A DNA stretch of 64,000 bases from Bacteroidales bacterium (GCA_047975005.1 JBKECW010000040.1:12496-76495); one strand, 5' to 3'. Positions 8,277 through 25,155 are shown, numbered from the stretch's first letter. The notes: a model not told the origin generated them from the sequence alone. A program made the numbers and translations.

Positions 8277-9212
8277 ATGAATGACAATAAAATAACAAAC
8301 CAAGACCAACAAGTATCTAATAGCTATTTGGACGAACGAAGTTCTAACAATAAAAGGAACAATCTAATTATAATAATACTTCTGGCATTGCTAGGAGTGT
8401 TGGCATATCTGTATTTTAGCCAGCGCACCCAGTTTAAAGGCTTTGAACAAGCAATGACCGTCGAGAGGGACTCGTTAAAGTCAGAGCTCAACACAATGAT
8501 AATAGGTTACGATTCGCTTTCGTCAGAAAACGACACTCTTAGCCATGAAATGTTACAGGAGAGAGACAGAGCAGACAGCCTTATAAAAGTTTTAGATCAA
8601 CAAAAGAGGTTGAGCTACCAAGAAATATCAAAATACAAAAAAGAAGTCGGTACTCTACGCGGTATAATGCGCAATTTTGTGAAACAGATAGACTCGCTCA
8701 ATGCCAAGAACGAATCTCTAATGGCTCAGGTTCAGGGGCTACAAAGCGACTATACCGCAGTGCAATCCGAGAAACAACAAATTGAGCAGTCGCGCAACCA
8801 GTTGCAAAAGGTAGTAGACAAGGCATCGAAGCTATCGGTGCGAGACTTTGGCGCAAGTTTGATAAACAAACGCGGAACGCCGGTAGATAAACGGCGGAGT
8901 GCAGTACAAATAGTCGTTGGTTTTGTAGTGAATGAAAACATCACTGCTAGCCGAGGCTCCAAAACAGCGTATGTGCGCATCGAAAGACCGGACCAAATTG
9001 TGATGGTCAGCTCTGCAAACAATATATTTAAATACGAAAACAGTAATCTGCTTTACTCAATGAAGCGAGACTTCATATATGAAGGAAAGACTTTGCCCGT
9101 CAACCTCTATTGGGATCAAGGTATAGATGACTTGCCCTTGGGATCTTACACCGTAGATCTATTTATAGATGGCAAAAATATAGCAAGCTCAAAATTTAAC
9201 ATCAATAGATAA
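8277..9212 (+). CDS. Membrane-anchored coiled-coil protein of unknown function
   Basis: One TM helix (LIIIILLALLGVLAYLYF), then about 150 aa of heptad-rich sequence (Q/E/K/L), then a beta-rich C-terminal domain of about 130 aa. I see no catalytic motif. Confidence 0.6.
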   Translation: MNDNKITNQDQQVSNSYLDERSSNNKRNNLIIIILLALLGVLAYLYFSQRTQFKGFEQAMTVERDSLKSELNTMIIGYDSLSSENDTLSHEMLQERDRADSLIKVLDQQKRLSYQEISKYKKEVGTLRGIMRNFVKQIDSLNAKNESLMAQVQGLQSDYTAVQSEKQQIEQSRNQLQKVVDKASKLSVRDFGASLINKRGTPVDKRRSAVQIVVGFVVNENITASRGSKTAYVRIERPDQIVMVSSANNIFKYENSNLLYSMKRDFIYEGKTLPVNLYWDQGIDDLPLGSYTVDLFIDGKNIASSKFNINR

Positions 9213-9255: not shown

Positions 9256-9924
9256 ATGAGAGTATTGCAATATATAGAAGATGTTGTATTCCCTCCTGTT
9301 TGCGACGGATGTGGAGGCAAACTGCTCGGTGCCGAAAAAATATTATGTGTTAAATGTCTTTCATCGCTACCATACAATATGGCTTTGGAGTTTGACAATA
9401 ACCTAATTAAGCTTTCCCCGGGTGTTCCCTTTATGTCATTGTTTACTTATCAAAAGGGGAATCTGGCTCAGAGGCTAATATATAAACTGAAGTATGACGG
9501 GCGGAAAGACATAGGCGTATTTTTGGGTAGAATTGTAGGAGAGAACTTGAATAAAACGAAGGCTCATATTGATTTTGTATTGCCAATACCTTTAACTAGT
9601 GTTAAATTTATGATAAGAGGCTTTAATCAAAGCGAAATGATAGCGCGCGGAATTTCAGAAGTTATTAAGGCTCCTGTCAATACCAATATCCTTAGAAGAA
9701 GAATGGGGTTGCGTTCTCAAACACGATTGAACAAGTGGAAACGCTGGGAAAATGTAGAGGAAAAGTTCTTTGTGTCGCCAAATAATCCAATACCGAAGCA
9801 GTCATCCGTATTGGTGGTCGATGATGTGTTTACCACAGGAGCTACTATCACCTCGTGCGTGCGACCGGCAATCGATAAGTTCTCTAAAATCTATGCTTGT
9901 GCTTTGGCAAGTGCATCGCGTTAA
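9256..9924 (+). CDS. comF: ComF-family phosphoribosyltransferase-domain protein
   Basis: N-terminal double Cys pairs (CDGCG...CVKC) and a C-terminal PRPP-binding loop VLVVDDVFTTGATI. Confidence 0.85.
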   Translation: MRVLQYIEDVVFPPVCDGCGGKLLGAEKILCVKCLSSLPYNMALEFDNNLIKLSPGVPFMSLFTYQKGNLAQRLIYKLKYDGRKDIGVFLGRIVGENLNKTKAHIDFVLPIPLTSVKFMIRGFNQSEMIARGISEVIKAPVNTNILRRRMGLRSQTRLNKWKRWENVEEKFFVSPNNPIPKQSSVLVVDDVFTTGATITSCVRPAIDKFSKIYACALASASR

Positions 9925-10190: not shown

Positions 10191-10220
10191 TTTTTTTTTT
10201 TCTAAAAAAAAAGAAAAAAA
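10191..10220. repeat. Homopolymeric tract cluster T11-CT-A9-G-A7 upstream of the paralogue array
   Basis: Counted directly: T at 10191-10201, A at 10204-10212, A at 10214-10220. The cluster lies 102 nt upstream of the ATG at 10323. Confidence 0.9.
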
Positions 10221-10322
10221 GTGGAAGATTATTTGTTTTTCTTATTGGTATTGTTTTCCTTTGCAGTGGAAACAAATGGGAATCTGAATACTATTTGAAG
10301 ATAGACGAGATAATATAGCGTT

Positions 10323-12275
10323 ATGAAAATTTTTTACGTTAGAATTTGCAGTTTAATATTACTTTTAGTGCTTGTTGGAACAGCAACTGAAGTGTGCGCT
10401 GCCGGGTACTTTAGAGATACGGTGAGTTATGTATGCGGAGCATCAAGGTCTCACGTGTATCTAGACAAAGAAGTTGGGATAGACAATCTTGATGTGAATC
10501 AAGGCTATTGGTTGCTTATTCATAGCGATCAGTATGCTACTGTAAATCCTGACGATCTAAGCTCCATCACTCAGCCTATGGTTATTGATACCGTTAGCAA
10601 TGCTTTCGGGTTGGTGGGAAGGCCGTATGGAGCATACGACCTTATTTTTGTTTCTACCCAAAACCAGCAGTGCGGGATTAACGTTGATGGAATGGCGCAC
10701 TTGCGTTTGAATATCCTTCCTCCTTCCGAACATTTCTATATAGGACAGGTGTGCGTGTCAAACGGTACTATTATTCTCAACAATGTGTTAGAAGAGCTAA
10801 TGCCTTCATTTGAGGAAGGGCGCGACGAAATCGTGTGGACTCATTACAAACTAAACGATGCTAATGACTTGGTAGAAGCTAACGATGGGTTAAATACCTC
10901 CACAGGTGAGCTAAGCCTTGATAAATACCTCGGAACAGAAGTAACGATAAACTTCTCGTTGACCAGACAAATAGATGGACACACAATAAACAATTGCTCT
11001 GATGGCTCTATAACATTAGAGGTCGTAGACAGTGTTGAACCCCAGGGAACGATAAACTCCGTTCCTTTTTGCATTGAGTCCTTGCCTGATACGGTTTCAC
11101 TAAACCAATTATTAGGAATGGGTTTTCCCTCAAGTTCTACAGATGCGTGGTCATCGTCGGACGGAGTTAGCATAGTAGGAAGCAAAGTTCCACTGAAATC
11201 CGCTGTGAAGAAGTATATAACCGATAATTCTGCAAGACCTACACAATTCGAATTTAAGCTGACAAGAACAATAGATGCATCCAAATGCATAACGCAAGGT
11301 GAAGAGACATTGATAATTAAATTTGTGGACTCGGATTTTAGAATGCCCTCCGATATTCCTCTTAGTGATGTTTGTCAGTACGCCGATCCTTATATTAATC
11401 TGTATGAGAAGATGGGGCTTGCGCTACCATCAAATGCAGGAACATGGAAAGTAGAGCCTGCAATAGATCCTGCATTCTTTAGCGACGGACGTCTTGTTAC
11501 TATTGGGCTGCAAGAGGGCGAGTATAAATTTACTTATATAATCGACGAAACTATCGATACCACCTTGGCTTGTGCTATTGGCATTGATACTGTTAGACTG
11601 AATTTTAAGTTTAATGAGGATAACGGTCTAAAAGGTACCTCTATACAAGTCTGCGAAGACAATGCCGACAATATCAATTTATATAGCCTCCTAATGAATA
11701 GGAATTACACTACTCATCTTGATGATGGCTATTGGGCAGAGGTAAACAATAAAGATGTAGTCTTGGAAAAACTTACTTCAGCTCAGGCTAGCAATGTAGA
11801 CCTGTCCGGAAAGCCTAACAATACCTACATGTACCGATTTACTGACACAACAGAGAGTTTTTGCGGAGACAGTGTTGCCTTGGTGTATGTTACAAAAACG
11901 CGGAATGTCGCGGTGAGCTCTAGAACAATATCGATGTGTCATTTGTTTAACACTGCAGATACCTTTAGTTTGACAGCATTTGCCGGATTGGCAGGTGTGT
12001 GTGGAACATGGTCATGGGAGGATGTTGATGGTGCGGGAAGTGTTATAAAGGCTGACGGAACTCCTGCTACAAACGGAAGCGCACAAAATGCTGATGGTTT
12101 GTTTTTTCTAGCTAACGATGAATATTCTACAAATCCTCCTGCGGGAGAAGAGTATAAACAATACAAATTCACATTTAAAGTCGGACCGGACTGTGATGGC
12201 TGCGGTTTGAAAAAAGATCAAGAGATACCTTTTTATGTGAATATTACTAGTAATATGATTGACGGATTACCTTAA
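10323..12275 (+). CDS. Secreted six-module Cys-bracketed repeat protein, paralogue A (no T9SS sorting domain)
   Basis: Signal peptide, 14 Cys in the mature part, and six modules of about 100 aa collinear with ORFs B-E. It ends ...FYVNITSNMIDGLP. Confidence 0.85.
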   Translation: MKIFYVRICSLILLLVLVGTATEVCAAGYFRDTVSYVCGASRSHVYLDKEVGIDNLDVNQGYWLLIHSDQYATVNPDDLSSITQPMVIDTVSNAFGLVGRPYGAYDLIFVSTQNQQCGINVDGMAHLRLNILPPSEHFYIGQVCVSNGTIILNNVLEELMPSFEEGRDEIVWTHYKLNDANDLVEANDGLNTSTGELSLDKYLGTEVTINFSLTRQIDGHTINNCSDGSITLEVVDSVEPQGTINSVPFCIESLPDTVSLNQLLGMGFPSSSTDAWSSSDGVSIVGSKVPLKSAVKKYITDNSARPTQFEFKLTRTIDASKCITQGEETLIIKFVDSDFRMPSDIPLSDVCQYADPYINLYEKMGLALPSNAGTWKVEPAIDPAFFSDGRLVTIGLQEGEYKFTYIIDETIDTTLACAIGIDTVRLNFKFNEDNGLKGTSIQVCEDNADNINLYSLLMNRNYTTHLDDGYWAEVNNKDVVLEKLTSAQASNVDLSGKPNNTYMYRFTDTTESFCGDSVALVYVTKTRNVAVSSRTISMCHLFNTADTFSLTAFAGLAGVCGTWSWEDVDGAGSVIKADGTPATNGSAQNADGLFFLANDEYSTNPPAGEEYKQYKFTFKVGPDCDGCGLKKDQEIPFYVNITSNMIDGLP

Positions 12276-12298
12276 AGAATTAATTATTAACAATATAA

Positions 12299-14164
12299 AT
12301 GAATCGTATAAATTTAATTAGAATCTTTATTATGAGAAAGTTGTTTACTTTTCTTGTTAGTGTTGTAGCAATGCTAACAATATCTATGGGTACTGCAAGC
12401 TCACAATGCAAGGTGTTTAGTGTTGACACCATGTATGTTTGTCCTGCGGATCTTAGTACTCCAATTGACCTAGAGAGCCAAGTAGTTGGAATTAATTTTG
12501 AAGAAGGAAAAGGTATATGGTACGCTATTCCTGTGAATACAGAAATAGGTGCTGCGGATACTTGTAAATTCCCTCTTGCTAATTCGACCGAAGTAGAGGG
12601 TGGAATTTTTATTACTGCAGAAGCTTCTGAAGGACAAACGTACACTTTTCTTTACCGTTCTACAGAGAGTCAAGGTTGTGGTATCGAGCAAGGTGGTGTA
12701 GCTATCGCTACTATAATAACAGTAAGTAAAGGTAATCTTGAATTTGATGTTTGTGAGAATAAGGGACCTCTAGACCTGTTGGGTATTCTGAACGCAGAGG
12801 TACCTCAAAAAATTGGTGAGGGTGACTACACTGAAGATGACATTGTGTTCTACAATTATGTAGCAATAGTTGATGCCGACGGACTTACTTATGAAAAAGG
12901 CGATGTCATCTCCGACCAGCAGTTGGTTATTGACGGAAAAGGCGGTGGCCATCCGGTAAAAGTAGGCTACGAAGTGAAAAGAAGACCCGGAAACGGCGAT
13001 TCTATCTCATGTATGCTTGGAGATTTAGTATTTAATGTATATGATAGCAATGATTCAATTGTTATTAAAGATGACACTACTGCATTCTGTAGTAAGGATG
13101 AATATGCTTCCACAGATTCTATTAGATTGAATGATCTTATTACACCTGTTTTACATGGTACCTGGACAGCCTTAGGATCTGCTCCTGTAGTAAGCTCTAC
13201 CGGAAGAATTTCTAAAGGAGATGCTGCTGCTGCTGCTGCTGCTAATGGTGGTAATGTGAAATATACATATTCATATAAAAAAGGCTGTGATCCAGAGACT
13301 GACGGTACTGCTACTCTTACTATTGAGTTCAAAGAGATATCAATTCCGAATGGTAAGAAAGATACTACTAGTTTCTGTTCTAATGAGAATGGCAGAATAG
13401 ACTTTGATCTTTGGATTGGTGCAGAGCTTCCTAATGGAGACTGGTCATCAACTACTACACCAGATTTTTCAGGCTTGATTAGCGAGGGTAACGTCTTGAA
13501 CACTGCTGTTTTGCCAGCTGGAGAGCATACCTTTAAATGGGTTAAAAACTCAACAGTTGAATCGAACTGTGATTATCCGGATTCACTATTCTTTACTATA
13601 GTAATCAACGAGGCTTATTCTCAAGGAGATATTGTTAGAAAATTCTGTAAAACCTCAGGTCTTGTAGACTACGATTTGAACTCTCTGTTAGAAGCTGATG
13701 CAAGTGGAAAATGGCAAATAAAGGATGGAAGTGCATACGCAGACGTAAGCGATCCTACTAATTTCAACCTAGATTCATTTGCAACAACTGACGGTCCTGT
13801 AGGAGAACTTGTGTATATCATAGGCGACGCTGACGCTGCTTGTGGAGTTGACTCTGTTTCAGTATTCTTATCGTTTGTAGATAATATTATTCTTAACGAC
13901 AGAGAAAAATACTTCTGTATTTACATGGACGATGCTAAAAACATTAACATAACCAATATTCTAGGTAGCGAGCTTGAAGATGGAAAATGGTTGAATCCTA
14001 CAACAGCAGAACCTGGTTCTATTACTGGAACAGAACAGAATCCAATTTTTAATGGCTCTTTGAATGTAGCAGGTGACTATGTATTTACATACACAGGAAA
14101 AGACTGTAACGGTGTAGAGCAGACTGCGACAGTTACAATAAAACTTGGAACTGAATTGCCATAA
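12299..14164 (+). CDS. Secreted six-module Cys-bracketed repeat protein, paralogue B (no T9SS sorting domain)
   Basis: Collinear with A, C, D and E. The signal peptide is more canonical if translation starts at ATG 12332 (MRKLFTFLVSVVAMLTISMGTASS|QC). 14 Cys. Contains an Ala7 run. It ends ...VTIKLGTELP. Confidence 0.85.
   Translation: MNRINLIRIFIMRKLFTFLVSVVAMLTISMGTASSQCKVFSVDTMYVCPADLSTPIDLESQVVGINFEEGKGIWYAIPVNTEIGAADTCKFPLANSTEVEGGIFITAEASEGQTYTFLYRSTESQGCGIEQGGVAIATIITVSKGNLEFDVCENKGPLDLLGILNAEVPQKIGEGDYTEDDIVFYNYVAIVDADGLTYEKGDVISDQQLVIDGKGGGHPVKVGYEVKRRPGNGDSISCMLGDLVFNVYDSNDSIVIKDDTTAFCSKDEYASTDSIRLNDLITPVLHGTWTALGSAPVVSSTGRISKGDAAAAAAANGGNVKYTYSYKKGCDPETDGTATLTIEFKEISIPNGKKDTTSFCSNENGRIDFDLWIGAELPNGDWSSTTTPDFSGLISEGNVLNTAVLPAGEHTFKWVKNSTVESNCDYPDSLFFTIVINEAYSQGDIVRKFCKTSGLVDYDLNSLLEADASGKWQIKDGSAYADVSDPTNFNLDSFATTDGPVGELVYIIGDADAACGVDSVSVFLSFVDNIILNDREKYFCIYMDDAKNINITNILGSELEDGKWLNPTTAEPGSITGTEQNPIFNGSLNVAGDYVFTYTGKDCNGVEQTATVTIKLGTELP
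13223..13243 (+). repeat. Perfect (GCT)7 trinucleotide repeat encoding Ala7 inside paralogue B
   Basis: gctgctgctgctgctgctgct read directly. The translation is GDAAAAAAANGG. Confidence 0.95.
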
Positions 14165-14181
14165 TTGCAATTTTGATATTA

Positions 14182-14218
14182 AATCACTCTAGAGTAATAA
14201 AAACTCTAGAGTGATTTT
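14182..14218 (+). terminator. Hairpin terminator between paralogues B and C
   Basis: Perfect 14-bp inverted repeat aatcactctagagt / actctagagtgatt with a 7-nt loop, ending in TTTT, 18 nt after the stop of B. Confidence 0.6.
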
Positions 14219-14246
14219 AAAAAAAAAAGAATAAAACAGGAAAGCA

Positions 14247-16244
14247 ATGAAAAAGATTATAAGCCTTATATTTACGTGTGCGATACTGGTTTCATTATCG
14301 GCAAATACATTTGCACAATGTGGAAAAAGCTTGTTCAGGGATGTAACCATCTATAGGTGTGAGACAGATTACACACCCATCGACCTCGTTACCGAATCAG
14401 GCTTAGGTCTTTCATTAAATGGTGGATTTTGGGTGCAGATTGTACCCGGTACACTAGATGTTACACCAGGCACAGGAGAGGTAGGATGTATTCCTATCGA
14501 GAAATATGCGACAGTGATAGGAGACATAGCAAACGGAGAAGTAGATCTCGGTAATGTTTATAATCAAGGAGAGTCAAATATAGGTACCTACGAGTTTATA
14601 TACGTAGTAACACATAGCCAAGGTTGTGGTGTAATGGCCGATGACATGGTTAGGGTTAAACTTAGAGTATTGTCAGATCCTCAGAATATAAAATCGGATG
14701 CTTGTCCTGATTTGACTGTTGACCTTTATTCTATAATCCAGCCTTATTATCAAGAGTTGAATATCAACTCATCGACAGTTGTCGACTTTGCTGTAGTAGG
14801 CAATGGTTCAGATGATAATCTGGACGCATCGAAAGGAGAATATTTTACAGGAGGTAGAAACGGACAAACAGTCGAAATTCAGTTTACTGTTATTAGACCC
14901 GAGGTATCGTGCAACATCAATAATTTAATTTTGAAAATTGCTGATAGAGATGGTCTAGATACTTTGGCAAAGACTGATACAGTCAATTTATGTAGGTTTG
15001 CCATAAGCGACCCACTTGATTTGTACACTGTTTCAGGAATAGACTCGGCATTGTACAGTACTTCTGGAAACTGGAAACAAACTAGCGGACCGGTGATGTT
15101 TGGTTCGCATAATACAGTTACACCAAGTGGTGTAATAGACACATCAGGTGCAGCATTTGCTGACACTTATTGGAGCAGTGGCTTGTATATATTTGAATTT
15201 AGTGGATATAATACAAATCCTTGCGACAATATAACAGGTACCGAAACTGCAGAAGTGGTTTTGAGAGTAACTGATAATTTATTGCCTTTTGCAGTCGATA
15301 CGACTCATAGTCTGGAGTGCAACAATTCAACATTAATCGAATTAGATTCTTATTTGCCAGTGAGTTTACCCTCAGGTGCAGGTAGTTGGTTGGACTCTGT
15401 TTACTATTTCGATGGAACTACATTGACAGGTTATAAAGACATTAATGAATCTCTTGGCGCAGATGTAGTAATAGGCAATTTGTTTTATGCTTCGTTGCCA
15501 GTGGTAAGACCCGGCTCATATTATTTTAAATATCGAGTTAGTGGAATAAATGACAAACTTTGTGGCTTAGCCAAAAAAGAGTTTGTTGCAGCAATAGAAC
15601 TAGCGCAGGCATCAAACTTAGTATCTCAGAGTTTAGAGATTTGTTCTCAGAATATTGATAAATCGCTAAACCTATTTAGTCTTTTGAATGAACCCGTAGA
15701 GCAACAAGATAGCGTTTGGTCGTTCAATGACACAAAACTAAGTGCAGAAGAGGCAAGCTCTTTTGTACCATCAGAGCATGGATTTAGAAATAATCAGACT
15801 TATGTTCTGGATTATCTGGACGATGCAGTATCTTGCGGAACATCATCAGCATCGTTGTATGTTACCGTTAAAGAGTCTATCCTAATAGGGGATACAGTAG
15901 AAATGTACTACTGTTATTCTAATGGGGCAGAGATTATAAATATATCTAACTTGGCAGGTTTTGTCGGAGTTAGTGGAAATTGGACTTGGAAAGCTGATCC
16001 TAGTTCCTATACTATAAGTGCTGAAAATGTTGTTAAGGCTGATGGGTCAATTCACTCAGGAGCTTCGACAGGTGGCGCAATTTATTTGAAAGGTAGAAAT
16101 CAGTATCTTTCTAATAATTCGGCAGCAAACGGTCAGATATCTTATATATTCACATTCGAGCCAACAGCTGGTGCAGACAATTGTCTTACCGGTGCAGACA
16201 AGGCAGTTGTGAAGGTTATTATTGGTGATACGATGACACCATAA
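14247..16244 (+). CDS. Secreted six-module Cys-bracketed repeat protein, paralogue C (no T9SS sorting domain)
   Basis: Signal peptide ...ANTFA|QC, 14 Cys, and modules collinear with A, B, D and E. It ends ...VVKVIIGDTMTP. Confidence 0.88.
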   Translation: MKKIISLIFTCAILVSLSANTFAQCGKSLFRDVTIYRCETDYTPIDLVTESGLGLSLNGGFWVQIVPGTLDVTPGTGEVGCIPIEKYATVIGDIANGEVDLGNVYNQGESNIGTYEFIYVVTHSQGCGVMADDMVRVKLRVLSDPQNIKSDACPDLTVDLYSIIQPYYQELNINSSTVVDFAVVGNGSDDNLDASKGEYFTGGRNGQTVEIQFTVIRPEVSCNINNLILKIADRDGLDTLAKTDTVNLCRFAISDPLDLYTVSGIDSALYSTSGNWKQTSGPVMFGSHNTVTPSGVIDTSGAAFADTYWSSGLYIFEFSGYNTNPCDNITGTETAEVVLRVTDNLLPFAVDTTHSLECNNSTLIELDSYLPVSLPSGAGSWLDSVYYFDGTTLTGYKDINESLGADVVIGNLFYASLPVVRPGSYYFKYRVSGINDKLCGLAKKEFVAAIELAQASNLVSQSLEICSQNIDKSLNLFSLLNEPVEQQDSVWSFNDTKLSAEEASSFVPSEHGFRNNQTYVLDYLDDAVSCGTSSASLYVTVKESILIGDTVEMYYCYSNGAEIINISNLAGFVGVSGNWTWKADPSSYTISAENVVKADGSIHSGASTGGAIYLKGRNQYLSNNSAANGQISYIFTFEPTAGADNCLTGADKAVVKVIIGDTMTP

Positions 16245-16286
16245 TCAACACATCGTAGGATTTCACTATATTGGAAAAGTGAATAT

Positions 16287-16294
16287 TAATTTTG
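16287..16294 (+). promoter_or_regulatory. Candidate -7 box TAatTTTG upstream of paralogue D
   Basis: Exact TAnnTTTG match in the 214-bp C-D spacer, 165 nt upstream of the ATG. There is no good -33 element. Confidence 0.3.
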
Positions 16295-16458
16295 AAGAAA
16301 TAAGACTTGAGTGCAGAGACTTCGAGCAAGTGTAATTGCAACTGCAAGTTGAACTATAAACGATAGATATTTAGGGTTTTATAAGAATTATTTTAAGGGC
16401 GATGAAATTGGAAGTTGTATCAGATAGTATGACGAGGGTTTGAATAAATGAACTTATT

Positions 16459-18393
16459 ATGAGAATTAAACAATTAATACTGGGGCTTATATTTGTTGCA
16501 TTGTCAGCAACAACAGCTTTTTCACAGGCTAGTTATGTCGTAGACAAAACTGTCTATGCCTGCGAAGACCAACATGAGCCAATAAATTTAGTGAAAAGTA
16601 CAGGGATGCAGCTTACTCCTAATGCCGGTTATTGGGTGAGAATTGTTCCCGGTTCTCATTTGGATAATAGCATTCCGATGAATGCTACTATTATCGCTGA
16701 AAGAATATCTCCTATCTTCGGCATTGAAGGTCGTGCGTATGGTACTTATGAGTTTATTTATGTCGCTACAGCTGTTCAGATGTGCGGCATAAACAGGGAT
16801 GATTTTATCCGTGTTGTGCTTGAAATAGAGCCTAGTGCAAAAACACTAACTCGCTTTGCCTGTGGAGGTGAGGTTGTAGATCTGAGCGCAATTCTGCAAT
16901 CGCAGAACTTTGATCAGACTAGCATCGATAATGCTGAGTGGGCAGTGCTCAACAGTAACAACGAGCCGCTTGTCCCCGCAGATGATAATCTTGACCTAAG
17001 TAATAAAACATACAATACTGCAGGCAGAGAAGGACAAAGCATTACTTTCTCTTATGTGCTTGATAGAACAGAAGTTGGCTGTAATTCGGGTTTCATGGTT
17101 TTAGAAGTAGGAGACAAGTATATACACCAACTGTTGGCAGATACAGTACAGAAACTTACTTGTATTGGCGATGTTGCAACACCTAGTAATATTAATCTGA
17201 ATGCAATGCTGGGCATATCGCAAGATATATATGGCGGTGCTTGGTCGGTAGTGTCGTCTTCGTCGGCATCCCTGAGTGCTGGCAATATAAGCATTGATGC
17301 ATCAGGTAGTATTTCTGTGGATGCTAGCTCCGGAGAGTCTTTTCCGCAGGTTGGCGAATTTGTATTCAAATATTCTTACAAGGCTGAGTTTTGCTCGGGC
17401 AGTGGCATCGATACATTCTCAATACTAAAACTTACTGTTAAGGACGATCTTAGCACAGACTTTGTCGGCACTGACACTACCTATTGCGAAAATTATGGCA
17501 CCGTAGATTTGTTCTCTTTGCTAAACAATATATCACTACCTTCATCATCAGGAACATGGGATGTCCTTTACAACGGTAACCTAATTCCTAATAGCTTGAA
17601 GCCTTTTGATGTTGAAAATGGAGTATTTTCAACTCTGATGGCAGACGTTGGTGTTTATACATTCAAATATTATGTCTCTCAGTCGGCGCAAGATTTGTGC
17701 GGATTGACTGGACTAAATGCCGAGTTTACAATCAATATCTCCGAAGCAGTAGAAATTGTTGATGCTGCCCGTCAGATGTGTGCCGGCTCGACAGAAAGAA
17801 TCAACCTTTATAATGTCTTTAATGAACATATAAATCCGCAAAACTGGGATGTTTTCTATAATGGAAGTCAGATTTCAAAAGCTGACGCCTTGGCATACAG
17901 CCCATCGGCAAATTCATTGCAAGCCAACCAGTCGCATCTGTTTAACTATAAATATTCCGGATCTGAGAATGTATGTGGTGTAGATTCAGCAAATTTCTAC
18001 TTGACATTGCGCAGCGAAGGACTAGAACTGAACAATCAGAAACGTTATTTCTGTAGCTATATTGGTGCCGACGAAATAAATATCTCTGATATACTCGGTG
18101 TGGTCGGAATAGACGGAAGCTGGGAAGTGCAAAGTGAGGTGTTGAGCAATGTGTTTACCGTAGATAATCAGGGAAATATAATATCGCATAGCAATACTAC
18201 AATTGTAGAGAATACAGGACTATTCTTTAAAGGCAAAGAACAATATGAGGATGACTTAGTAAGCAGTGGTGTTGCCGGAGATAGAACTTATGAATTTACT
18301 TTTACTCCAAGCAATAATAATGCTTGTATCGATAGTGATAAATTACAGCCTGTAACGGTTACGATTATTATAGGCGAAGATATTACTCAGTAA
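16459..18393 (+). CDS. Secreted six-module Cys-bracketed repeat protein, paralogue D (no T9SS sorting domain)
   Basis: Signal peptide ...TTAFS|QA. Exactly 12 Cys, two per module. It ends ...VTVTIIIGEDITQ. Confidence 0.88.
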   Translation: MRIKQLILGLIFVALSATTAFSQASYVVDKTVYACEDQHEPINLVKSTGMQLTPNAGYWVRIVPGSHLDNSIPMNATIIAERISPIFGIEGRAYGTYEFIYVATAVQMCGINRDDFIRVVLEIEPSAKTLTRFACGGEVVDLSAILQSQNFDQTSIDNAEWAVLNSNNEPLVPADDNLDLSNKTYNTAGREGQSITFSYVLDRTEVGCNSGFMVLEVGDKYIHQLLADTVQKLTCIGDVATPSNINLNAMLGISQDIYGGAWSVVSSSSASLSAGNISIDASGSISVDASSGESFPQVGEFVFKYSYKAEFCSGSGIDTFSILKLTVKDDLSTDFVGTDTTYCENYGTVDLFSLLNNISLPSSSGTWDVLYNGNLIPNSLKPFDVENGVFSTLMADVGVYTFKYYVSQSAQDLCGLTGLNAEFTINISEAVEIVDAARQMCAGSTERINLYNVFNEHINPQNWDVFYNGSQISKADALAYSPSANSLQANQSHLFNYKYSGSENVCGVDSANFYLTLRSEGLELNNQKRYFCSYIGADEINISDILGVVGIDGSWEVQSEVLSNVFTVDNQGNIISHSNTTIVENTGLFFKGKEQYEDDLVSSGVAGDRTYEFTFTPSNNNACIDSDKLQPVTVTIIIGEDITQ

Positions 18394-18462
18394 ATGAGAA
18401 AATGTGCTTAGTTCAATGTTTTTGATCTTGAAGAGAACAAATAGGAAGAAAAAAAATAACTT

Positions 18463-21400
18463 ATGAGAGTTTTTTATAGGATATTGAGATTGTGTATACT
18501 GGTGCTTGCGCCAACATTATCATCACTCTGTGCTAGTGCACAAAGCACTGGTGAGAGGTATACATTTGATACGGCTTTTTGTATTAGTGAATCCTTTCCG
18601 ATTAACCTTAATACTGTCACAGAAAAACAACTGCCACCGCAAGCGGGGGAATGGGTTGATGCTAAAGATGGTAGCGAGGTGTCGTTTGTATTCGACCCAC
18701 AGGGAAAAGCCGCAGGAAGATATGAATATCATTTCTTGCCATCCAAAACTGTTTGCGGATTGTATCCTGGCGATACAGTAGCAGTTATAATAGACTTGTT
18801 TCCCGATTCAGGGCTCAAGGATTTTGTTCTCTCTATTTGCGAGGAGTCTAATGTAGACTTGTGGTTAGCAATACATGCTCTTCCTATTGATACTAGCTAT
18901 ATTGAGTTTTACGACAATGATGGTAAACTTCTAACAGTCAATGAAGCATCTTCGGCTAACGTAGGTCGCGATGATGTTACTCAGTTTTACTATAAAGTAA
19001 ATCACCCTAATGCCTGCAATCAGGATTCCGGCTTTGTTTATTTCAACCTTGACGAAGTGCCATTTGACCTTGCAAATACCAACTCCGAGGAGGTTAGATT
19101 CTGTGCGAATAATACGCCGCATATGATTAACCTTAATGATGTAATCGGAGGTATTGCAGAAGAATGGCAATTGAAAGATTTTGCAAGTCAACCTTCTGAT
19201 CTGCAAAATTTGATAAATAGATTGTTGGATGTAAGGACAGGTGAATTTCATATTAAAGAAGCCAGTTTGTCTGGTTATACAGAGTTTAATTTTCAGGCTA
19301 TAAGCTCTTCTTCTTGCGGTGCAGGGGTGTCTAATGTTGTTAAGATTATTATAGACCCTGCTGACAATATAAATTTTGCTAATCTTGGTGGAGACACATT
19401 GAAATTGTGCAGTAGCGATATGTCTCAGGTATATAGTTTGAACAGATATTTGAACGTAGTACTTCCTGATAACAGTATAAAATGGACTACCGAAGACCTT
19501 GCCGCTAAGTCTTTCCTAGACACAACAGGGATTTTAGATGCAAGAAATTTGGTGCCTGGGTTCTATACTTTCACTGCGACGTATGTAGACAACACAGAGG
19601 AATGCGGACTAAGAACAGGACAAAGCACCAATATTTATATGTTGATACAGGATGAGTTGGAGTTTGGAACAACCAACCTACTTGCATCAATGTGCTATAA
19701 TAGTACAGAGAACTTGAATGATATGATGCCAACACAGTTGGGGATGAATATCAGTTTTGAGTTGCAAAATCCTAATGACAACAGTTCAATAATATTGAGT
19801 GAATCAGAGATTGAGGCTTTCTCTCCTGCAAATTACCCATCTGTTATTACAGATGCAACAGATACTACCTATCAAATACTTTACTCATTCACAGATGCTG
19901 TGTGCAAAAATACTGACTACAAGGATACTTTGTACCTAACAGTATTGACAGGTAATGAAAATGTAGAATTGTCGGACAAAGATTTGTACGCATGCTACTC
20001 TAGTGCCGGATTGATAAAACTTCAGCATATACTTGGGTATTATGGCAAAGGTACATGGGCAAGTGCAGAACCTCTTGACTATTTTGATGCAACAAATGGA
20101 GAGTTTTACGGAAAAACTCAATTTATAGCAGATAATGTTATAACCGAGAAGGCTTACAGCTTTACATTTACTCCTGATGCAGCAAGCTCTTGCTTGACAG
20201 TAAACAGTCCTGTAAATGTGATTGTTACCCTTACAAATGACCTTGAAGGCTCGGCACCCGATGAGAACTATGTAGTGACAGACACTATACAAAATGAAGA
20301 CAGACGTCCTATAAATCTTATGGATTATATAGAGCTAAGTTCTCTTGAAGGATATTGGACTCTCGATGACTTAAGCACGCCGACATCTATGGTACTCAAT
20401 CTTGAAGATTTTGAAAGATACCCAGAAGGCGAATACAACTTTGTATATACAGTGCCAGGCAATGGAGAACATTGTGTTAATGATACAATTTATTTCCGCG
20501 TGAATCTAGTTCTGTATGGTCTGCCTCTCAACGTACAAGACTCTTTGATGGCAATCACATGTAGCAGTGAGGATAATGGTGGTATATATGTCAATATAAT
20601 TGAAGGCTCAAAACCATACAACGTAGTGTTGACTCAGTTTGTTGATGGAACAACTAGTACAATATTCAACGGGACATTTGCTGCCGAAACTGACACAACA
20701 TTCACTCCTCTTGAAGGAATGTATGAACTTTGTATTGTCGATTTTGCAAATGATACATTTAGGAATACCTATAATATTGTAAGACCGGAGCCTATTATGG
20801 TTAATAAAATACAGGTACATAATGTGACTAGTGGTCAGAGAAATAATGGTGTGCTCGAGGTGAGAATATCCGGAGGTACAGATCCTTACTATGCTATAGT
20901 TATAGGTAGCTGTGATCCTGTGCTTAATACATGTAACGACTTTATAACAGACTCTGTGATATGGTCTGAAAAGGATGATTCGCACAAATACTTCTTGAGC
21001 TACGACTCTCTACCTGCCGGAGATTACAGAATCTTTGTGATGGATTCATCGAGATACTACTATTACGATAACGACGATTTAGTAACTGCTAACTTGACAA
21101 ATCTTGACGCCGGAGTTTGTTCGATAGACACATTCTTTACAATAGGAAACGACCCATTAATGCTGAATTGTCCTGATACATTATCAGTATATGGAAGTGA
21201 AAACTGTGAGTTTACTATCCCGAATATCAAAGCACTTGTAGGCTTAAGTGGAGGTGCCGAAGATTACGACTTAACGGTTGTTGTTCAAGACCCTGAAACA
21301 GGAGAGTATATTACAGGAGCAATTCTGCCTAGCGATGTAGAGAAGTATTATGAGGTGAATGTGTATGCTAGAGCACCTATTGCCGGTGGAGCTACTGATG

Positions 21401-21756
21401 CCAACGGACAGGTAATACTCGATACATTGGCTCAATGTCAGGTAGTACTTGATGTAACATGTAGAAAAGACCTAATCGTTGGACAGATTATTACTCCAAA
21501 CAACGATGGTAAGAACGATACATGGTTGATACAAGGATTGGAGAATTATCCAAATCACAAAATCAGAGTATATGGTAGATGGGGAGATTTAGTCTTCGAG
21601 ACCAGCTACTATAGAAATGACTGGGCTGCCGACTGTAGAACCGCAAACTGCATGGGTAATGGAAATCTTCCTGTAGGAACTTACTACTGGATAATAGATC
21701 TAGGTATTGAAGGCGACAATGAGGTGCTAAGCGGATTCATGGAAGTAGTCTACTAA
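18463..21756 (+). CDS. T9SS type-B cargo: paralogue E. Six Cys-bracketed modules, one extra module, SprB-type repeats and a gliding-motility-associated C-terminal domain
   Basis: Residues 1-599 are collinear with A-D. Residues 600-1001 contain SprB-like repeats (ITCSSEDNGGIYVNIIEGSKPY and NNGVLEVRISGGTDPYY). The last 96 aa or so match the type-B CTD pattern. Confidence 0.9.
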   Translation: MRVFYRILRLCILVLAPTLSSLCASAQSTGERYTFDTAFCISESFPINLNTVTEKQLPPQAGEWVDAKDGSEVSFVFDPQGKAAGRYEYHFLPSKTVCGLYPGDTVAVIIDLFPDSGLKDFVLSICEESNVDLWLAIHALPIDTSYIEFYDNDGKLLTVNEASSANVGRDDVTQFYYKVNHPNACNQDSGFVYFNLDEVPFDLANTNSEEVRFCANNTPHMINLNDVIGGIAEEWQLKDFASQPSDLQNLINRLLDVRTGEFHIKEASLSGYTEFNFQAISSSSCGAGVSNVVKIIIDPADNINFANLGGDTLKLCSSDMSQVYSLNRYLNVVLPDNSIKWTTEDLAAKSFLDTTGILDARNLVPGFYTFTATYVDNTEECGLRTGQSTNIYMLIQDELEFGTTNLLASMCYNSTENLNDMMPTQLGMNISFELQNPNDNSSIILSESEIEAFSPANYPSVITDATDTTYQILYSFTDAVCKNTDYKDTLYLTVLTGNENVELSDKDLYACYSSAGLIKLQHILGYYGKGTWASAEPLDYFDATNGEFYGKTQFIADNVITEKAYSFTFTPDAASSCLTVNSPVNVIVTLTNDLEGSAPDENYVVTDTIQNEDRRPINLMDYIELSSLEGYWTLDDLSTPTSMVLNLEDFERYPEGEYNFVYTVPGNGEHCVNDTIYFRVNLVLYGLPLNVQDSLMAITCSSEDNGGIYVNIIEGSKPYNVVLTQFVDGTTSTIFNGTFAAETDTTFTPLEGMYELCIVDFANDTFRNTYNIVRPEPIMVNKIQVHNVTSGQRNNGVLEVRISGGTDPYYAIVIGSCDPVLNTCNDFITDSVIWSEKDDSHKYFLSYDSLPAGDYRIFVMDSSRYYYYDNDDLVTANLTNLDAGVCSIDTFFTIGNDPLMLNCPDTLSVYGSENCEFTIPNIKALVGLSGGAEDYDLTVVVQDPETGEYITGAILPSDVEKYYEVNVYARAPIAGGATDANGQVILDTLAQCQVVLDVTCRKDLIVGQIITPNNDGKNDTWLIQGLENYPNHKIRVYGRWGDLVFETSYYRNDWAADCRTANCMGNGNLPVGTYYWIIDLGIEGDNEVLSGFMEVVY
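21466..21756 (+). other. T9SS type-B sorting domain (gliding motility-associated C-terminal domain, TIGR04131-like) of paralogue E
   Basis: KDLIVGQIITPNNDGKNDTWLIQGLENYPNHKIRVYGRWGDLVFE...LPVGTYYWIIDL...GFMEVVY. These are the hallmark ITPNGDGxND, hxhxNRWG and GTYYY-like elements. Confidence 0.85.
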
Positions 21757-21779
21757 CTTGATAGAAAATATAGAAGAAG

Positions 21780-22709
21780 ATGATATATTTAAAGAAATTG
21801 AGGTTTTGTATAATGTTAGGGGCGATGTCGCTCCTAACATACAACGGAGTTTTTGCACAGCAAAAAGTTCAGAACACTATGTATCTGTTTAATCCGCTTT
21901 CTTATAACCCCGCTTATGCAGGAACAAATGAAGAGTTGTCAGCATCGGCAGTATTTAGGAATCAGTGGACAAAGATTGACGGTGCCCCGGTAACAGGGTT
22001 TCTAACTGTTGAGTCTCCTGTTTGGAAGAACCTTTCGGTTGGTGTAAGTGCAGAATACGACCAACTTGGAGCAAGAACAAATGCGGGAGGTGCTCTAGAC
22101 CTTGCCGCAAAGATTAAGATAAACCAACAAGGGCAGTTTCTTTCTATGGGTATAAAATTGGGGATTAACAACGTGAATTTTGACCATACAAAGTTCAATA
22201 GTGTTATTAATGATGGCGACCCTAGTAACCTGTCATGGTCTAGAACCAACTTCAACTTCGATGTCGGCTTGTATTGGTATGGTGAAAGGTTTTATTTTGG
22301 TGCTTCGACCTTGTCTTTGCTAGAGAATCCACTAGTTGAAAATGGAGTTGAGGGACAGTACAAGAGTAAAATGCACTTTTACAACTTCGGAGCATATTAT
22401 TGGGAGTTTTCTAGGAATGTAGCATTTAAACCCTCGTATATGCTCAAATATGTTGAAAATGCACCAATCTCTGTCGATTTAAACGCTAGCTTTTTGTTGT
22501 ATAATTTAGCGTGGATAGGAGGAAATTATAGGTATGACAATACTGTTGGAGCGCATCTTATAATGAATATATCCCCTAACTTGGAATTAGGTTATGCATA
22601 CGAGTTCGCCATTGGCAAGGATAGCCAGAGCTTTGGTGGAACACACGAAGTTATGCTTAGATACAGATATAAGAGAGATATCAAGTTTAGAACGCCACGA
22701 CGTTTCTAA
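21780..22709 (+). CDS. PorP/SprF-family type IX secretion system membrane protein
   Basis: Signal peptide GVFA|QQ, then the family-typical N-terminus (FNPLSYNPAYAGT and FRNQWTKIDGAP). About 300 aa of beta-barrel-like sequence. Starts 23 nt after the type-B cargo gene. Confidence 0.88.
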   Translation: MIYLKKLRFCIMLGAMSLLTYNGVFAQQKVQNTMYLFNPLSYNPAYAGTNEELSASAVFRNQWTKIDGAPVTGFLTVESPVWKNLSVGVSAEYDQLGARTNAGGALDLAAKIKINQQGQFLSMGIKLGINNVNFDHTKFNSVINDGDPSNLSWSRTNFNFDVGLYWYGERFYFGASTLSLLENPLVENGVEGQYKSKMHFYNFGAYYWEFSRNVAFKPSYMLKYVENAPISVDLNASFLLYNLAWIGGNYRYDNTVGAHLIMNISPNLELGYAYEFAIGKDSQSFGGTHEVMLRYRYKRDIKFRTPRRF

Positions 22710-22854
22710 GAGCCTATACAGAGATATAATGGAGAGCGGAGTGTCAAAATATGGCACTATAAGTTTTCTTAAAATGAAAGTAATATAAACAAAGAATATA
22801 TTAGATATTGTCAGGTACCTTGAATATAAAGATGCTACATCTAAAAAAAAAAAT

Positions 22855-25098
22855 ATGAAACTTATTGCAAGAATATCCATCATACTGGTGTTTTCGGTAT
22901 TGACCGCTGGTTGCTTGAGTGCACAGAGTGCTTTGCAAGCCGATAGATATTGGAACGATTTGGCGTATGTTAAGTCTTCAGAGGCCTATGCTAAACTATT
23001 GAAAAAGGATCCTAAAAATCCACTTTATCTAAAACGAGCGGCTAACTCTTTCTATGAAACTGGTGACTTCAAGGTCTCGTCTAGGTTTTTTGCTTCTTTA
23101 GAAAGAGCCGGAGAACTTGAAGGAGACGATGTTTTTACTTACTTCCAAATTCTGTTAATGCTGAATAACGATGTAGAGGCGAAGCGGGTTTTAGACCAAA
23201 ATCTTGCAAATGCGTCAGACTCAGAGTTGTATCCGGTGTTGAATACATGGAAGCAGGATTTTCTTCAAAGGGAGAGCCTAAAAGATGGTGTCTATGATAT
23301 TGATTTCTTGGATGTTCCTATAAATTCAAAGCAGGCTGATTTTGCTCCTACATTTTATGGAGATGGTATTGTGTTTGCATCAAGTAGACCCAATCCGACG
23401 AAAAAAGCAAGTATTTTTGAAGGTGATGGGGCGTCATTCCTAGATTTGTACTTTGCCAAGCTGACTGACAACGGAGAGTTTACGAAAGTACTGCCTTTTG
23501 ATGCAGAAGTAAATACAGAGTACCATGATGGACCTGTTGTATTTTCTAGTGACGGTCAGACAATGTACATCTCTCGCAGTTTCTATAAAGCAGAGAGCAG
23601 CAAAAAAATTAAGGGCGATAAGAATGGTGTAGTAAACACCAAAATACAAGTAGTAAATAAAGATGAGAATGATAAGTGGACAAAAATAACTGAGTTCCCT
23701 TACAATGATCCCAGCAATATGGTAGCCCATGCCGCAATATCCGCAGACGGGCAAACAATGGTGTATGCATCCAATCAACAAGACGGCTATGGCCGAAGTG
23801 ATTTGTATGTTTGTACCGGAGACGAATACGGCTGGTCTGAGCCTGTAAACCTGGGAAGCTACATTAATACCGCTGGCGAAGAGCTGTTCCCTTCTATCAA
23901 TAGTGACGGAGATTTGTTCTTCTCATCAAATGGTCTTCTTGGACTAGGAGGTTTGGACGTTTTTATGGTACAAGGTTTTTTGAGTGGAGCGAGAGATGTT
24001 GTCAATATTGGAGCTCCGGTCAATTCGGCATATGATGATTTTGGTATGGTATATGACTTCAATAAAAAGATAGGCTTTTTTAGCTCGAATAGAGAAGGAG
24101 GACTAGGAAGTGATGATATATATCAATTTCGCTTTAAAGCTACAGCATTTAAAGTGTTGGCATACAATTGTGAATCTACGGCAGCCAATCCTGAACTTAT
24201 TTCGGGAGCGACCGTTAAGGTTGACGACTTGTCGGATGTATTTATTCTAGAAACGGCAACAGACAGCAAAGGGATTGGCGAGGTGAAATTAGCTACACAA
24301 GATATAAAAATTACACTCCAAGCAGATGGATATCTTGACACTTCTGTTGTTGTGCCCATGTCAGACTTTGAGAAGTATGTTGACAATCCGTTGAAGATTG
24401 CTATCTGTAAAGAGCCTGTATTACCACCACCTACTGATTTGGAGATTGCATATAGTAATTTGGATATACCATCAAATTTGAATATTAATTTTGATCTTGA
24501 TAGTTGGGATATTACAGACGAAGCTGCTTATAAGCTAGATCAGGTTTTTGATATAATGATGAATCCTAAGTACATAAAGACAAAGGCATCATTGGCGGCT
24601 CATACAGACTCTCGCGGACAAGACGAATACAACGAGTGGTTATCGTGGAAACGTGCATGGTCTACAATAAAATACCTTATGATAAAAGGTTTAAGTTTTG
24701 ACCGCCTATATGGAATCGGGTATGGGGAGAGACGCCTTATGAACCAATGCGCAAATGGTGTTAGATGTTCTGAGTCAAACCATAGGGAGAATCGTCGGGT
24801 TGAAATAACAAATATGAGTGAAGAAAACCCGGAAATAGCAATGCTTACATTGAGTATGAATCCATTTGATAAGCCTCAGACTTATTATACCGTAGAAGTT
24901 CTTGTCTATAGTAGGCTTGTCGGTTCGAAGTCTAAAGACAAGGATACGGCGGGATATGCTCATTATATCAAAAAAGGAAGTAAATATCATCATATGATAG
25001 GGTATTTTAAAACTCGTGAGGATGCTGCTAAGTTTATGGAGCAGATAGGGTTTAAATCCCCAAAAATACGCTTTGTACAAAACGGGACGATTCAGTAA
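22855..25098 (+). CDS. OmpA-family protein with TPR, PD40 (TolB-like) repeats, an OmpA C-terminal domain and a SPOR-like tail
   Basis: PD40-like repeats (DFAPTFYGDGIVFASSR, GPVVFSSDGQTMYISR, AAISADGQTMVYASN, FPSINSDGDLFFSSN). The OmpA_C core runs from NFDLDSWDI through HTDSRG to NRRVEI. The last 72 aa or so are SPOR-like (YTVEVLV...HHMIGYFKTREDAAKFMEQIGF...IRFV). Confidence 0.85.
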   Translation: MKLIARISIILVFSVLTAGCLSAQSALQADRYWNDLAYVKSSEAYAKLLKKDPKNPLYLKRAANSFYETGDFKVSSRFFASLERAGELEGDDVFTYFQILLMLNNDVEAKRVLDQNLANASDSELYPVLNTWKQDFLQRESLKDGVYDIDFLDVPINSKQADFAPTFYGDGIVFASSRPNPTKKASIFEGDGASFLDLYFAKLTDNGEFTKVLPFDAEVNTEYHDGPVVFSSDGQTMYISRSFYKAESSKKIKGDKNGVVNTKIQVVNKDENDKWTKITEFPYNDPSNMVAHAAISADGQTMVYASNQQDGYGRSDLYVCTGDEYGWSEPVNLGSYINTAGEELFPSINSDGDLFFSSNGLLGLGGLDVFMVQGFLSGARDVVNIGAPVNSAYDDFGMVYDFNKKIGFFSSNREGGLGSDDIYQFRFKATAFKVLAYNCESTAANPELISGATVKVDDLSDVFILETATDSKGIGEVKLATQDIKITLQADGYLDTSVVVPMSDFEKYVDNPLKIAICKEPVLPPPTDLEIAYSNLDIPSNLNINFDLDSWDITDEAAYKLDQVFDIMMNPKYIKTKASLAAHTDSRGQDEYNEWLSWKRAWSTIKYLMIKGLSFDRLYGIGYGERRLMNQCANGVRCSESNHRENRRVEITNMSEENPEIAMLTLSMNPFDKPQTYYTVEVLVYSRLVGSKSKDKDTAGYAHYIKKGSKYHHMIGYFKTREDAAKFMEQIGFKSPKIRFVQNGTIQ

Positions 25099-25121
25099 GT
25101 AAATAAATAAATTTCTATTAG

Positions 25122-25155
25122 AAGTGAGGCATTATTTATGCCTCACTTTTTTTTT
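25122..25155 (+). terminator. Rho-independent terminator closing the T9SS cargo/PorP/OmpA block
   Basis: 11-bp stem aagtgaggcat / atgcctcactt, a 5-nt loop, then a T-run. Confidence 0.8.

Follow-up and report, generated by a model that had tools for sequence, protein, structure and literature searches.

The stretch of DNA analysed here is a 64,000-nt window of a Bacteroidales bacterium (GCA_047975005.1 JBKECW010000040.1:12496-76495), in which all positions are counted unless another locus is named. It contains a cluster of seven open reading frames (ORFs), all on the plus strand in the ORF listing, namely five paralogous genes designated A to E, a PorP/SprF-family gene and an OmpA/PD40 gene (Table 1). 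A first-pass annotation of this DNA had described five paralogues, among which E alone would bear a type IX secretion system (T9SS) C-terminal domain (CTD); its ORFs proved to be exact, and TIGR04131 and CHU_C were indeed found in E only. Judged by their sequences, E, the PorP-like gene and the PorE-like OmpA/PD40 gene are of known kinds, while A to D fit neither T9SS cargo nor surface lipoproteins and define an unannotated family. Residues 1006-1093 of E matched PF13585 CHU_C (E = 3e-23, 82.2 bits, cutoff 27) and its TIGR04131 score was 46.3 bits versus a cutoff of 35, matches which make E a type-B-CTD cargo of the T9SS. No match to the type-A or type-B CTD models (PF18962/TIGR04183, PF13585/TIGR04131) was obtained for A to D at E ≤ 0.1. 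Positions 1-587 of the family hidden Markov model (HMM) match residues 1-594 of E, and a weak seventh family-like domain was detected with the same HMM at residues 614-677 (independent E = 1e-3). The stalk (residues 595-1005) shows SprB-repeat-like and HYR-like motifs by eye only, a weak Y_Y_Y match in Pfam and few homologues, and the C-terminal half of E gave no significant match among PDB sequences.

As far as their sequences tell, A to E are genuine and old paralogues, with a similarity well above chance at 21-30% identity. In BLASTP comparisons, C and D shared 30% identity (E = 1e-68), A and D 24% (E = 6e-31), and B and C 24% (E = 1e-17), while residues 1-642 of D, covering its full length, aligned with residues 8-594 of E at 24.5% identity (E = 3e-18). 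Direct matches of A and B to E were weak (E = 1e-3 and E = 0.2, respectively), E being linked via D and via the family profile. Over its full length, this HMM matched A at E = 2e-114 and B at E = 2.5e-114, all of A to D being reported at E ≤ 1e-114. By eye, all five proteins begin with a hydrophobic segment that ends at a signal-peptidase-I-type site of the small-residue/Gln kind, in agreement with the Sec signal peptide earlier assigned to each CTD-less copy; that of E reads, by inspection, MRVFYRILRLCILVLAPTLSSLCASA↓QS. The mature proteins each contain an even number of cysteines. In B, 11 extra residues (MNRINLIRIFI) from the listed start precede a typical signal peptide (MRKLFTF…), and the true start is probably the second Met (ATG at 12332), since the orthologue in locus L001 aligns only from residue 12.

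The paralogues appear to be well maintained. An identical copy of D was found among the proteins of a 'Bacteroidales bacterium' metagenome-assembled genome (MAG). Orthologues of D in two related MAGs were 70% and 64% identical to it, and one of the MAGs examined, L001 (= L012), carries the entire array in the same gene order as the window, with all five paralogues intact as one-to-one orthologues, so that the five-fold duplication is older than these species. Identity between the window and L001 amounted to 65% for A, 53% for B, 66% for C, 70% for D and 63% for E, versus 82% for PorP, 78% for OmpA and 81% for the flanking PGM; A to E thus evolve faster than their neighbours. Paralogues standing in tandem immediately upstream of the expressed, anchored copy might recall silent or alternative cassettes serving the antigenic variation of E, or decaying duplicates devoid of any function of their own, yet we hold this to be very improbable. 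The five paralogue genes have no DNA repeat of more than 29 nt in common, which at such low protein identity makes homologous recombination not feasible; moreover, every copy is intact, with its own start codon, signal peptide and orthologues in related MAGs, and distant lineages, too, have conserved CTD-less members. Both cassette recombination and phase variation were rejected, no long direct or inverted repeats being present among the genes.

When 1.84 billion representative proteins were searched exhaustively with a profile, 238 relatives were recovered, 63 of them at E < 1e-30. A word-indexed homologue search with D and with a 38-sequence alignment returned only D itself and two orthologues, and two metagenome scans with subfamily alignments gave no confirmed relatives. 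The view that the CTD-less paralogues were undescribed apparently holds, as at E ≤ 0.1 A to D matched none of the families in Pfam or NCBIfam, the family profile had no significant match among PDB sequences, and nothing relevant was found in the literature. A short class comprises about 60 full-length proteins of 540-710 aa, which begin with a signal peptide and match the complete profile without interruption, and none of these presents a CTD-like tail; 12 invariant Cys bracket six domains in the alignment of 38 of them. A to D conform to the family pattern of about 560-680 aa, a Sec signal and six domains, each flanked by an invariant Cys pair. A giant class reaches 5,197 aa, with 5-22 copies of a family unit of about 100 aa. 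Of the family-repeat proteins, 59 measure 720 aa or more; a type-B-like CTD closes 36 of these and a type-A-like CTD 8, and the other 15 are mostly visibly truncated. Pfam confirmed CHU_C or Por_Secre_tail in all five giant proteins checked, the repeat itself having no Pfam model. Large family-repeat ORFs were also seen a few kb downstream of PorP/PorE-like pairs in L087 (14248-20919, Gelidibacter) and L052 (18511-20859, a Bacteroidetes MAG); the available portion of these two repeat-rich ORFs gave no CTD match, and they may be cut by the locus end.

Regarding structure, the AlphaFold2 (AF2) model of D consists of six beta-sandwich domains (pLDDT 82.9, pTM 0.71). Foldseek aligned it with ectodomains of protocadherin and cadherin, with contactin, with the S-layer protein Sap and with the base of GhpA, a grappling-hook protein secreted by the T9SS; TM-scores were low, as expected of multi-domain rods. 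Between orthologues, domain 1 was the best or nearly the best conserved (79% in A, 76% in D and 65% in B, versus 65%, 70% and 53% overall, respectively), while domain 6 was not the best conserved. A lipobox-like motif is missing in 86 of the 88 family members, 70 of which show an [AGS]Q signal-peptidase-I-type site; the lipoprotein route to the surface was rejected for A to D, which have no lipobox either. From these sequences, A to D are predicted to be Sec-exported, disulfide-stabilised rods of the adhesin type, with no known way across the outer membrane.

The arrangement had been taken as peculiar to this locus, and turned out instead to be a conserved module found in distant lineages. The surroundings of ten distant short-class members, belonging to three subfamilies, were considered together with L055, a locus from the PorP scan described below; L006 ends before its third gene and is uninformative, leaving 10 distant loci with readable downstream DNA. 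In every one of them (L004, L007, L008, L009, L010, L011, L055, L092, L093 and L094), one or two CTD-less members are followed by a same-strand CHU_C protein of 219-603 aa, the CTD-bearing gene of L008 being cut by the contig end with the start of the CTD already visible. The same order, CTD-less then CTD-bearing, is found in the window and its two orthologous MAGs, and the usual module consists of two CTD-less genes and one CTD-bearing gene. A family domain stands at the start of every CHU_C partner in the ten loci. The smallest partner, from the Mangrovibacterium MAG L055, has 219 aa and comprises just the signal peptide, a single family domain and the CTD, which leaves it little role beyond linking family domains to the T9SS.

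The comparative check suggested in the first-pass annotation came out in its favour, CTD-less copies being accompanied by a CTD-bearing family member in 10/10 distant loci. A PorP/SprF gene adjoins the module in only three of them, and a PorE-like gene in two, so that neither is an obligatory neighbour. By analogy with the orphan carriers shown for three F. johnsoniae cargoes (PMC12618676), modules devoid of an adjacent PorP could use an orphan carrier. The CTD-less proteins are full-length copies of the cargo's N-terminal region in this lineage, as had been claimed, but elsewhere the partner shares only one or two N-terminal family domains. In a neighbour-joining tree, position-1 and position-2 genes form separate old clades, while A to D of the window group with the N-terminal portion of E, which indicates an expansion particular to this lineage. 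The first domain of E matches the N-termini of the short CHU_C partners. That E arose as a CTD-less copy fused onto such a partner was not confirmed, residues 595-1000 of E having no detectable similarity to the partners' middle regions.

Two further observations concern these distant modules. A secreted DUF1573/ASH protein of 247-357 aa, immunoglobulin (Ig)-like, is encoded directly upstream of the CTD-less genes in five distant loci (Table 1); it has a signal-peptidase-I-type signal, no lipobox and no CTD. The window lineage lacks this protein, which may represent one more subunit of the module. In addition, L009 and L092 both originate from GCA_040777565.1, so that two separate copies of the module are present in one assembly, one with two CTD-less genes and PorP, the other with one CTD-less gene, PorP and a PorE-like gene. 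This assembly has more than 400,000 contigs and may be a host or metagenome assembly.

Downstream of E, the neighbours predicted in the first-pass annotation were recovered as described, with a PorP/SprF gene starting 23 nt past E (PF11751 E = 1e-64, 218.9 bits, cutoff 22.3; TIGR03519 213.4 bits, cutoff 90.55), then an OmpA-family gene. The latter matched, in Pfam, PD40 (E = 1e-14), OmpA (E = 4e-10) and weakly CarboxypepD_reg (0.002); of the PorE domain order, which is TPR, beta-propeller, carboxypeptidase-regulatory-like and OmpA_C, the TPR was not matched at E ≤ 0.1 in Pfam, though the PorE model aligns from residue 8. Its full-length matches to the NCBIfam models PorE NF052230 (270 bits, cutoff 600) and CHU_0125_OmpA (328 bits, cutoff 620) indicate, on the basis of sequence, a PorE-like paralogue and not PorE itself. 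The signal region of this protein shows a lipobox-like LTAG↓C in the window (22855-22920), while the 78%-identical orthologue in L001 (16490-16560) has no Cys there; lipoprotein status, a trait of PorE, is thus not conserved, or the Cys is incidental. The mature PorP-like protein is devoid of any cysteine and ends in …YKRDIKFRTPRRF, hence the periplasmic C-tail CxC motif of SprF is absent. In F. johnsoniae, SprF forms a disulfide link with GldK through this C-terminal Cys-Xaa-Cys, which is needed for movement on the gliding track (PMC12635249).

Cargo, PorP/SprF and OmpA triads had been presented as a known pattern, rightly so (Gorasia 2022, PMC9143113; Paillat 2025, PMC12618676). Scanning genomes with a PorP alignment yielded 80 loci across Bacteroidota, 79 of them assessable. 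At least 71 of the 79 had a type-B-CTD ORF ending no more than 700 nt upstream of PorP, 72 of the 79 had a PorE-like OmpA gene starting no more than 700 nt downstream, and the triad was complete in at least 65 of the 80 PorP loci. As cargo, several of these loci encode one giant protein composed of the family repeat. CTD-less family members were present in only 3/80, namely the two MAGs orthologous to the window and L055, which makes the arrangement specific to the A-D family and not general in PorP loci. Previous work showed that PorE, PorP and PG1035 form a complex and that 6 of the 10 porP-like genes of F. johnsoniae adjoin porE-like genes, and proposed that PorP and PorE keep non-mobile type-B cargo in place (PMC9143113). 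The cognate carrier is needed, and static foci were observed for Fjoh_3952 (PMC12618676).

Taken together, these data lead us to propose, tentatively and with a confidence that falls somewhat short of even, that the products of the locus form a T9SS surface adhesin of several subunits, statically anchored and composed of paralogous Ig/cadherin-like rods, with E as the targeting and anchoring subunit. A to D would be exported by Sec, after which their disulfides would form in the periplasm, and they would bind E via homotypic contacts between family domains. The likeliest contact site would be the well-conserved N-terminal domain, the part common to all CTD-bearing partners. The CTD of E would then act as the sole T9SS signal of the complex, which would be passed to the PorP-like carrier, the CTD-less subunits reaching the surface in trans (piggy-back) or joining E at the carrier. 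Finally, the assembly would be fixed in place rather than mobile, as expected from a PorP-like protein without the CxC tail for coupling to the gliding track and from the presence of a PorE-like neighbour. More generally, the T9SS may export or display CTD-less proteins assembled in the periplasm with a paralogue that gives the CTD in trans, the split-adhesin module being a natural case; this we regard as possible, albeit on the improbable side.

Several lines of evidence support this proposal of a multi-subunit adhesin anchored by E. At the level of sequence, they include the constant linkage of CTD-less members to a CHU_C protein in the distant loci, the family domain common to every such partner, and the fact that the family repeat is otherwise exported, with a T9SS CTD at the end of 44/59 long repeat proteins. 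In the model of D, the resemblance of the rod to cadherin and protocadherin ectodomains and to the GhpA base is in line with an adhesin. The lack of any other visible surface route for A to D (no lipobox, no CTD) and the maintenance of the copies as one-to-one orthologues at 53-70% identity also support it. Among the fates initially envisaged for the CTD-less proteins, that is to say periplasmic retention, piggy-back export or hetero-oligomerisation, and competition as alternative partners, the sequence evidence leans to the hetero-oligomer.

Other points weigh against this proposal. We found no precedent in the literature for T9SS export in trans or by piggy-back. The conservation of domain 1 is a supporting hint for the contact site, but its excess is modest. 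PorP and PorE-like genes are missing from most distant modules, so the anchoring part may hold for some lineages only. The AF2 model of D has no disordered N- or C-terminal extension, which makes donor-strand polymerisation unlikely. Gene linkage and a common domain would, besides, fit equally well a periplasmic partner or regulator of E.

It is thus conceivable that A to D stay in the periplasm and partner E or the PorP/PorE-like complex there, whether as holdases, assembly factors, spacers or competitors regulating the export of E. T9SS export needs a CTD on the substrate, and under this established rule a Sec signal with neither CTD nor lipobox predicts a periplasmic location, in which the even number of cysteines would fit oxidative folding; the tight linkage to E fits as well as it does in the surface model. 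We nevertheless consider this alternative rather unlikely. A chaperone or regulator made of six-domain cadherin/Ig-like rods of about 600 aa and retained as two to four diverged copies would be unusual in design, and the domain is otherwise found in proteins that end in T9SS CTDs, i.e., exported ones. Furthermore, A to D diverge between orthologues (53-70%) as fast as E, unlike PorP, OmpA and PGM, which is typical of exposed proteins.

The C-terminal end of the CTD-less proteins is recognisably conserved across the 38 aligned members, which might suggest that A to D are independent substrates of the T9SS, or of another route, carrying an unrecognised signal in their last domain (…TYxFTFTP…C…VTVTIxI…D) and having no need of E. 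F. johnsoniae does secrete some T9SS substrates, such as ChiA, by means of C-terminal signals that are neither type A nor type B, and this offers a precedent. The last domain is, however, internal in E (residues ~500-594) and in the giant cargo, where the HMM runs to position 586-587 in mid-chain, and would therefore be a structural repeat rather than a terminal tag. A signal located there would also sit in a domain, domain 6, that is not the best conserved, and would leave the CTD-bearing follower in 10/10 loci unexplained, so that such independent export seems decidedly unlikely to us.

If subunits are displayed by a CTD-bearing anchor as proposed here, the consequences would reach beyond this locus. 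The accepted rule is that each T9SS substrate has its own CTD, and here only one of several paralogous subunits has it; in addition, the CTD-bearing subunit can shrink to a single common domain and the CTD. This is the clearest genomic hint known to us that a CTD may act in trans. If true, CTD-based predictions of the T9SS secretome undercount surface proteins, the translocon and PorP-like carriers can handle hetero-oligomers, and a route to the display of untagged proteins is suggested. A new, unannotated protein family and domain are defined in any case, and the relatives in Mangrovibacterium and Prevotellaceae offer a compact three-gene test system.

As to the organisation of the cluster (Table 1), the intergenic gaps from A through OmpA/PD40 are, in order, 23, 82, 214, 69, 23 and 145 nt. 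A sigma-70 promoter scan was uninformative, with 51 sites versus 49.5 expected. The -7 box of Bacteroidota has the consensus TAnnTTTG, of which one candidate lies in the gap between C and D. A palindromic hairpin in the B-C gap (14168-14227, 25-nt arms, 84% complementary) could attenuate transcription downstream of B. Long A-rich tracts (TTTCTAAAAAAAAAGAAAAAAAGTGGAA, for example) located 5' of A, C and the OmpA gene (10199-10226, 14215-14242 and 22842-22861, respectively) are probably translation-initiation leaders typical of Bacteroidota.

The rest of the window carries housekeeping genes of an ordinary chromosomal kind, such as those for succinate dehydrogenase, TrpRS/TyrRS, FtsK, Mfd and LolA, with no mobile-element genes among them and no core T9SS genes within the 64 kb. 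Directly 5' of A lie the genes of a coiled-coil membrane protein (8277-9212), the orthologue of which is annotated DUF8429/DUF8428, and of a ComF-like phosphoribosyltransferase (9256-9924). Both are syntenic in L001 (82% and 56% identity) and absent from the distant loci, and nothing in the comparison points to their membership in the module. Elsewhere, an 818-aa ORF (51774-54230) had zero Pfam or NCBIfam matches, and a 459-aa outer-membrane protein of the Omp85 superfamily (56589-57971, minus strand), encoded beside lipid-metabolism genes (APP1-like phosphatase, diacylglycerol kinase), is unrelated to the putative adhesin cluster.

Table 1. Features of the putative adhesin cluster, with positions in the window, and of DUF1573/ASH genes, with positions in the locus named.
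Feature	Position	Strand	Description
Paralogue A	10323..12275	+	650 aa, CTD-less; Sec signal and six Ig-like domains bracketed by Cys
Paralogue B	12299..14164	+	621 aa as listed, CTD-less, most diverged copy
Paralogue C	14247..16244	+	665 aa, CTD-less
Candidate -7 box in the 214-nt C-D gap	16287..16294	+	Weak lead on an internal promoter
Paralogue D	16459..18393	+	644 aa, CTD-less; model with six beta-sandwich domains in tandem
E, whole gene	18463..21756	+	1097 aa
E residues 1-594, signal peptide and complete six-domain family region	18463..20244	+	Alignment with D, family HMM
E residues 595-1005, additional beta-rich stalk that A to D lack	20245..21477	+	
E residues 1006-1097, type-B T9SS CTD, plus stop codon	21478..21756	+	CHU_C, TIGR04131
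PorP/SprF-family outer-membrane carrier	21780..22709	+	309 aa; PF11751, TIGR03519
PorE-like PD40/OmpA peptidoglycan-binding protein	22855..25098	+	747 aa; PD40, OmpA
Intrinsic-terminator-like hairpin closing the cluster	25120..25150	+	13-bp stem, then T-run
DUF1573/ASH gene, L004	753-1499		
DUF1573/ASH gene, L006	100-843		
DUF1573/ASH gene, L008	1031-1777		
DUF1573/ASH gene, L009	5561-6634		
DUF1573/ASH gene, L092	8921-9982		

Among known systems, the Mfa1 fimbriae of P. gingivalis resemble the window in that one subunit has a T9SS CTD while the other subunits of the same cluster have none. Mfa1-4 are lipoprotein precursors, with a separate export route and assembly by strand exchange. A to D differ from them in having neither a lipobox nor a terminal extension for strand exchange. 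Moreover, these subunits are not known to be paralogues of Mfa5, which is listed as a T9SS cargo (PMC5445135), whereas A to D are paralogues of E. In Tat hitchhiker co-export, e.g., of PaoABC (PMC4273604), signal-less folded partners ride on a signal-bearing subunit; this is a mechanistic analogy only, since translocon, membrane and signal all differ from those of the T9SS.

The sprC-sprD-sprB-sprF operon of F. johnsoniae encodes accessory envelope proteins upstream of a type-B adhesin and its PorP-like carrier, these accessory proteins acting jointly with the cargo. Extra envelope genes are thus located 5' of a type-B cargo and carrier in both cases, but neither SprC nor SprD is known to be a paralogue of SprB. 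This operon, furthermore, has no PorE-like neighbour, while the window has one, and SprF couples to GldK by its CxC tail (PMC12635249), which the PorP-like protein of the window does not possess.

A close parallel in gene content is found in PorE-PorP-PG1035 of P. gingivalis and in triads of the Fjoh_3952/Fjoh_3951 type, where, as in the window, a type-B cargo is associated with an adjacent PorP/SprF barrel and a PD40/OmpA PorE-like protein (PMC9143113, PMC12618676). Static anchoring to peptidoglycan via PorP and PorE is expected in those triads as in the window. CTD-less paralogues of the cargo have not been reported there, unlike in the window, and the OmpA protein of the window falls under the NCBIfam PorE cutoff. 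Giant single-chain adhesins (for instance the cargo in L038, L041, L051, L060, L076 and L087), for their part, contain the same domain of about 100 aa and a type-B CTD, followed by PorP and a PorE-like gene. They unite repeats and CTD in one chain of 1,300-2,900 aa, whereas the window encodes separate six-domain polypeptides with one CTD, and by this analogy the locus looks like a split version of a giant single-chain adhesin.

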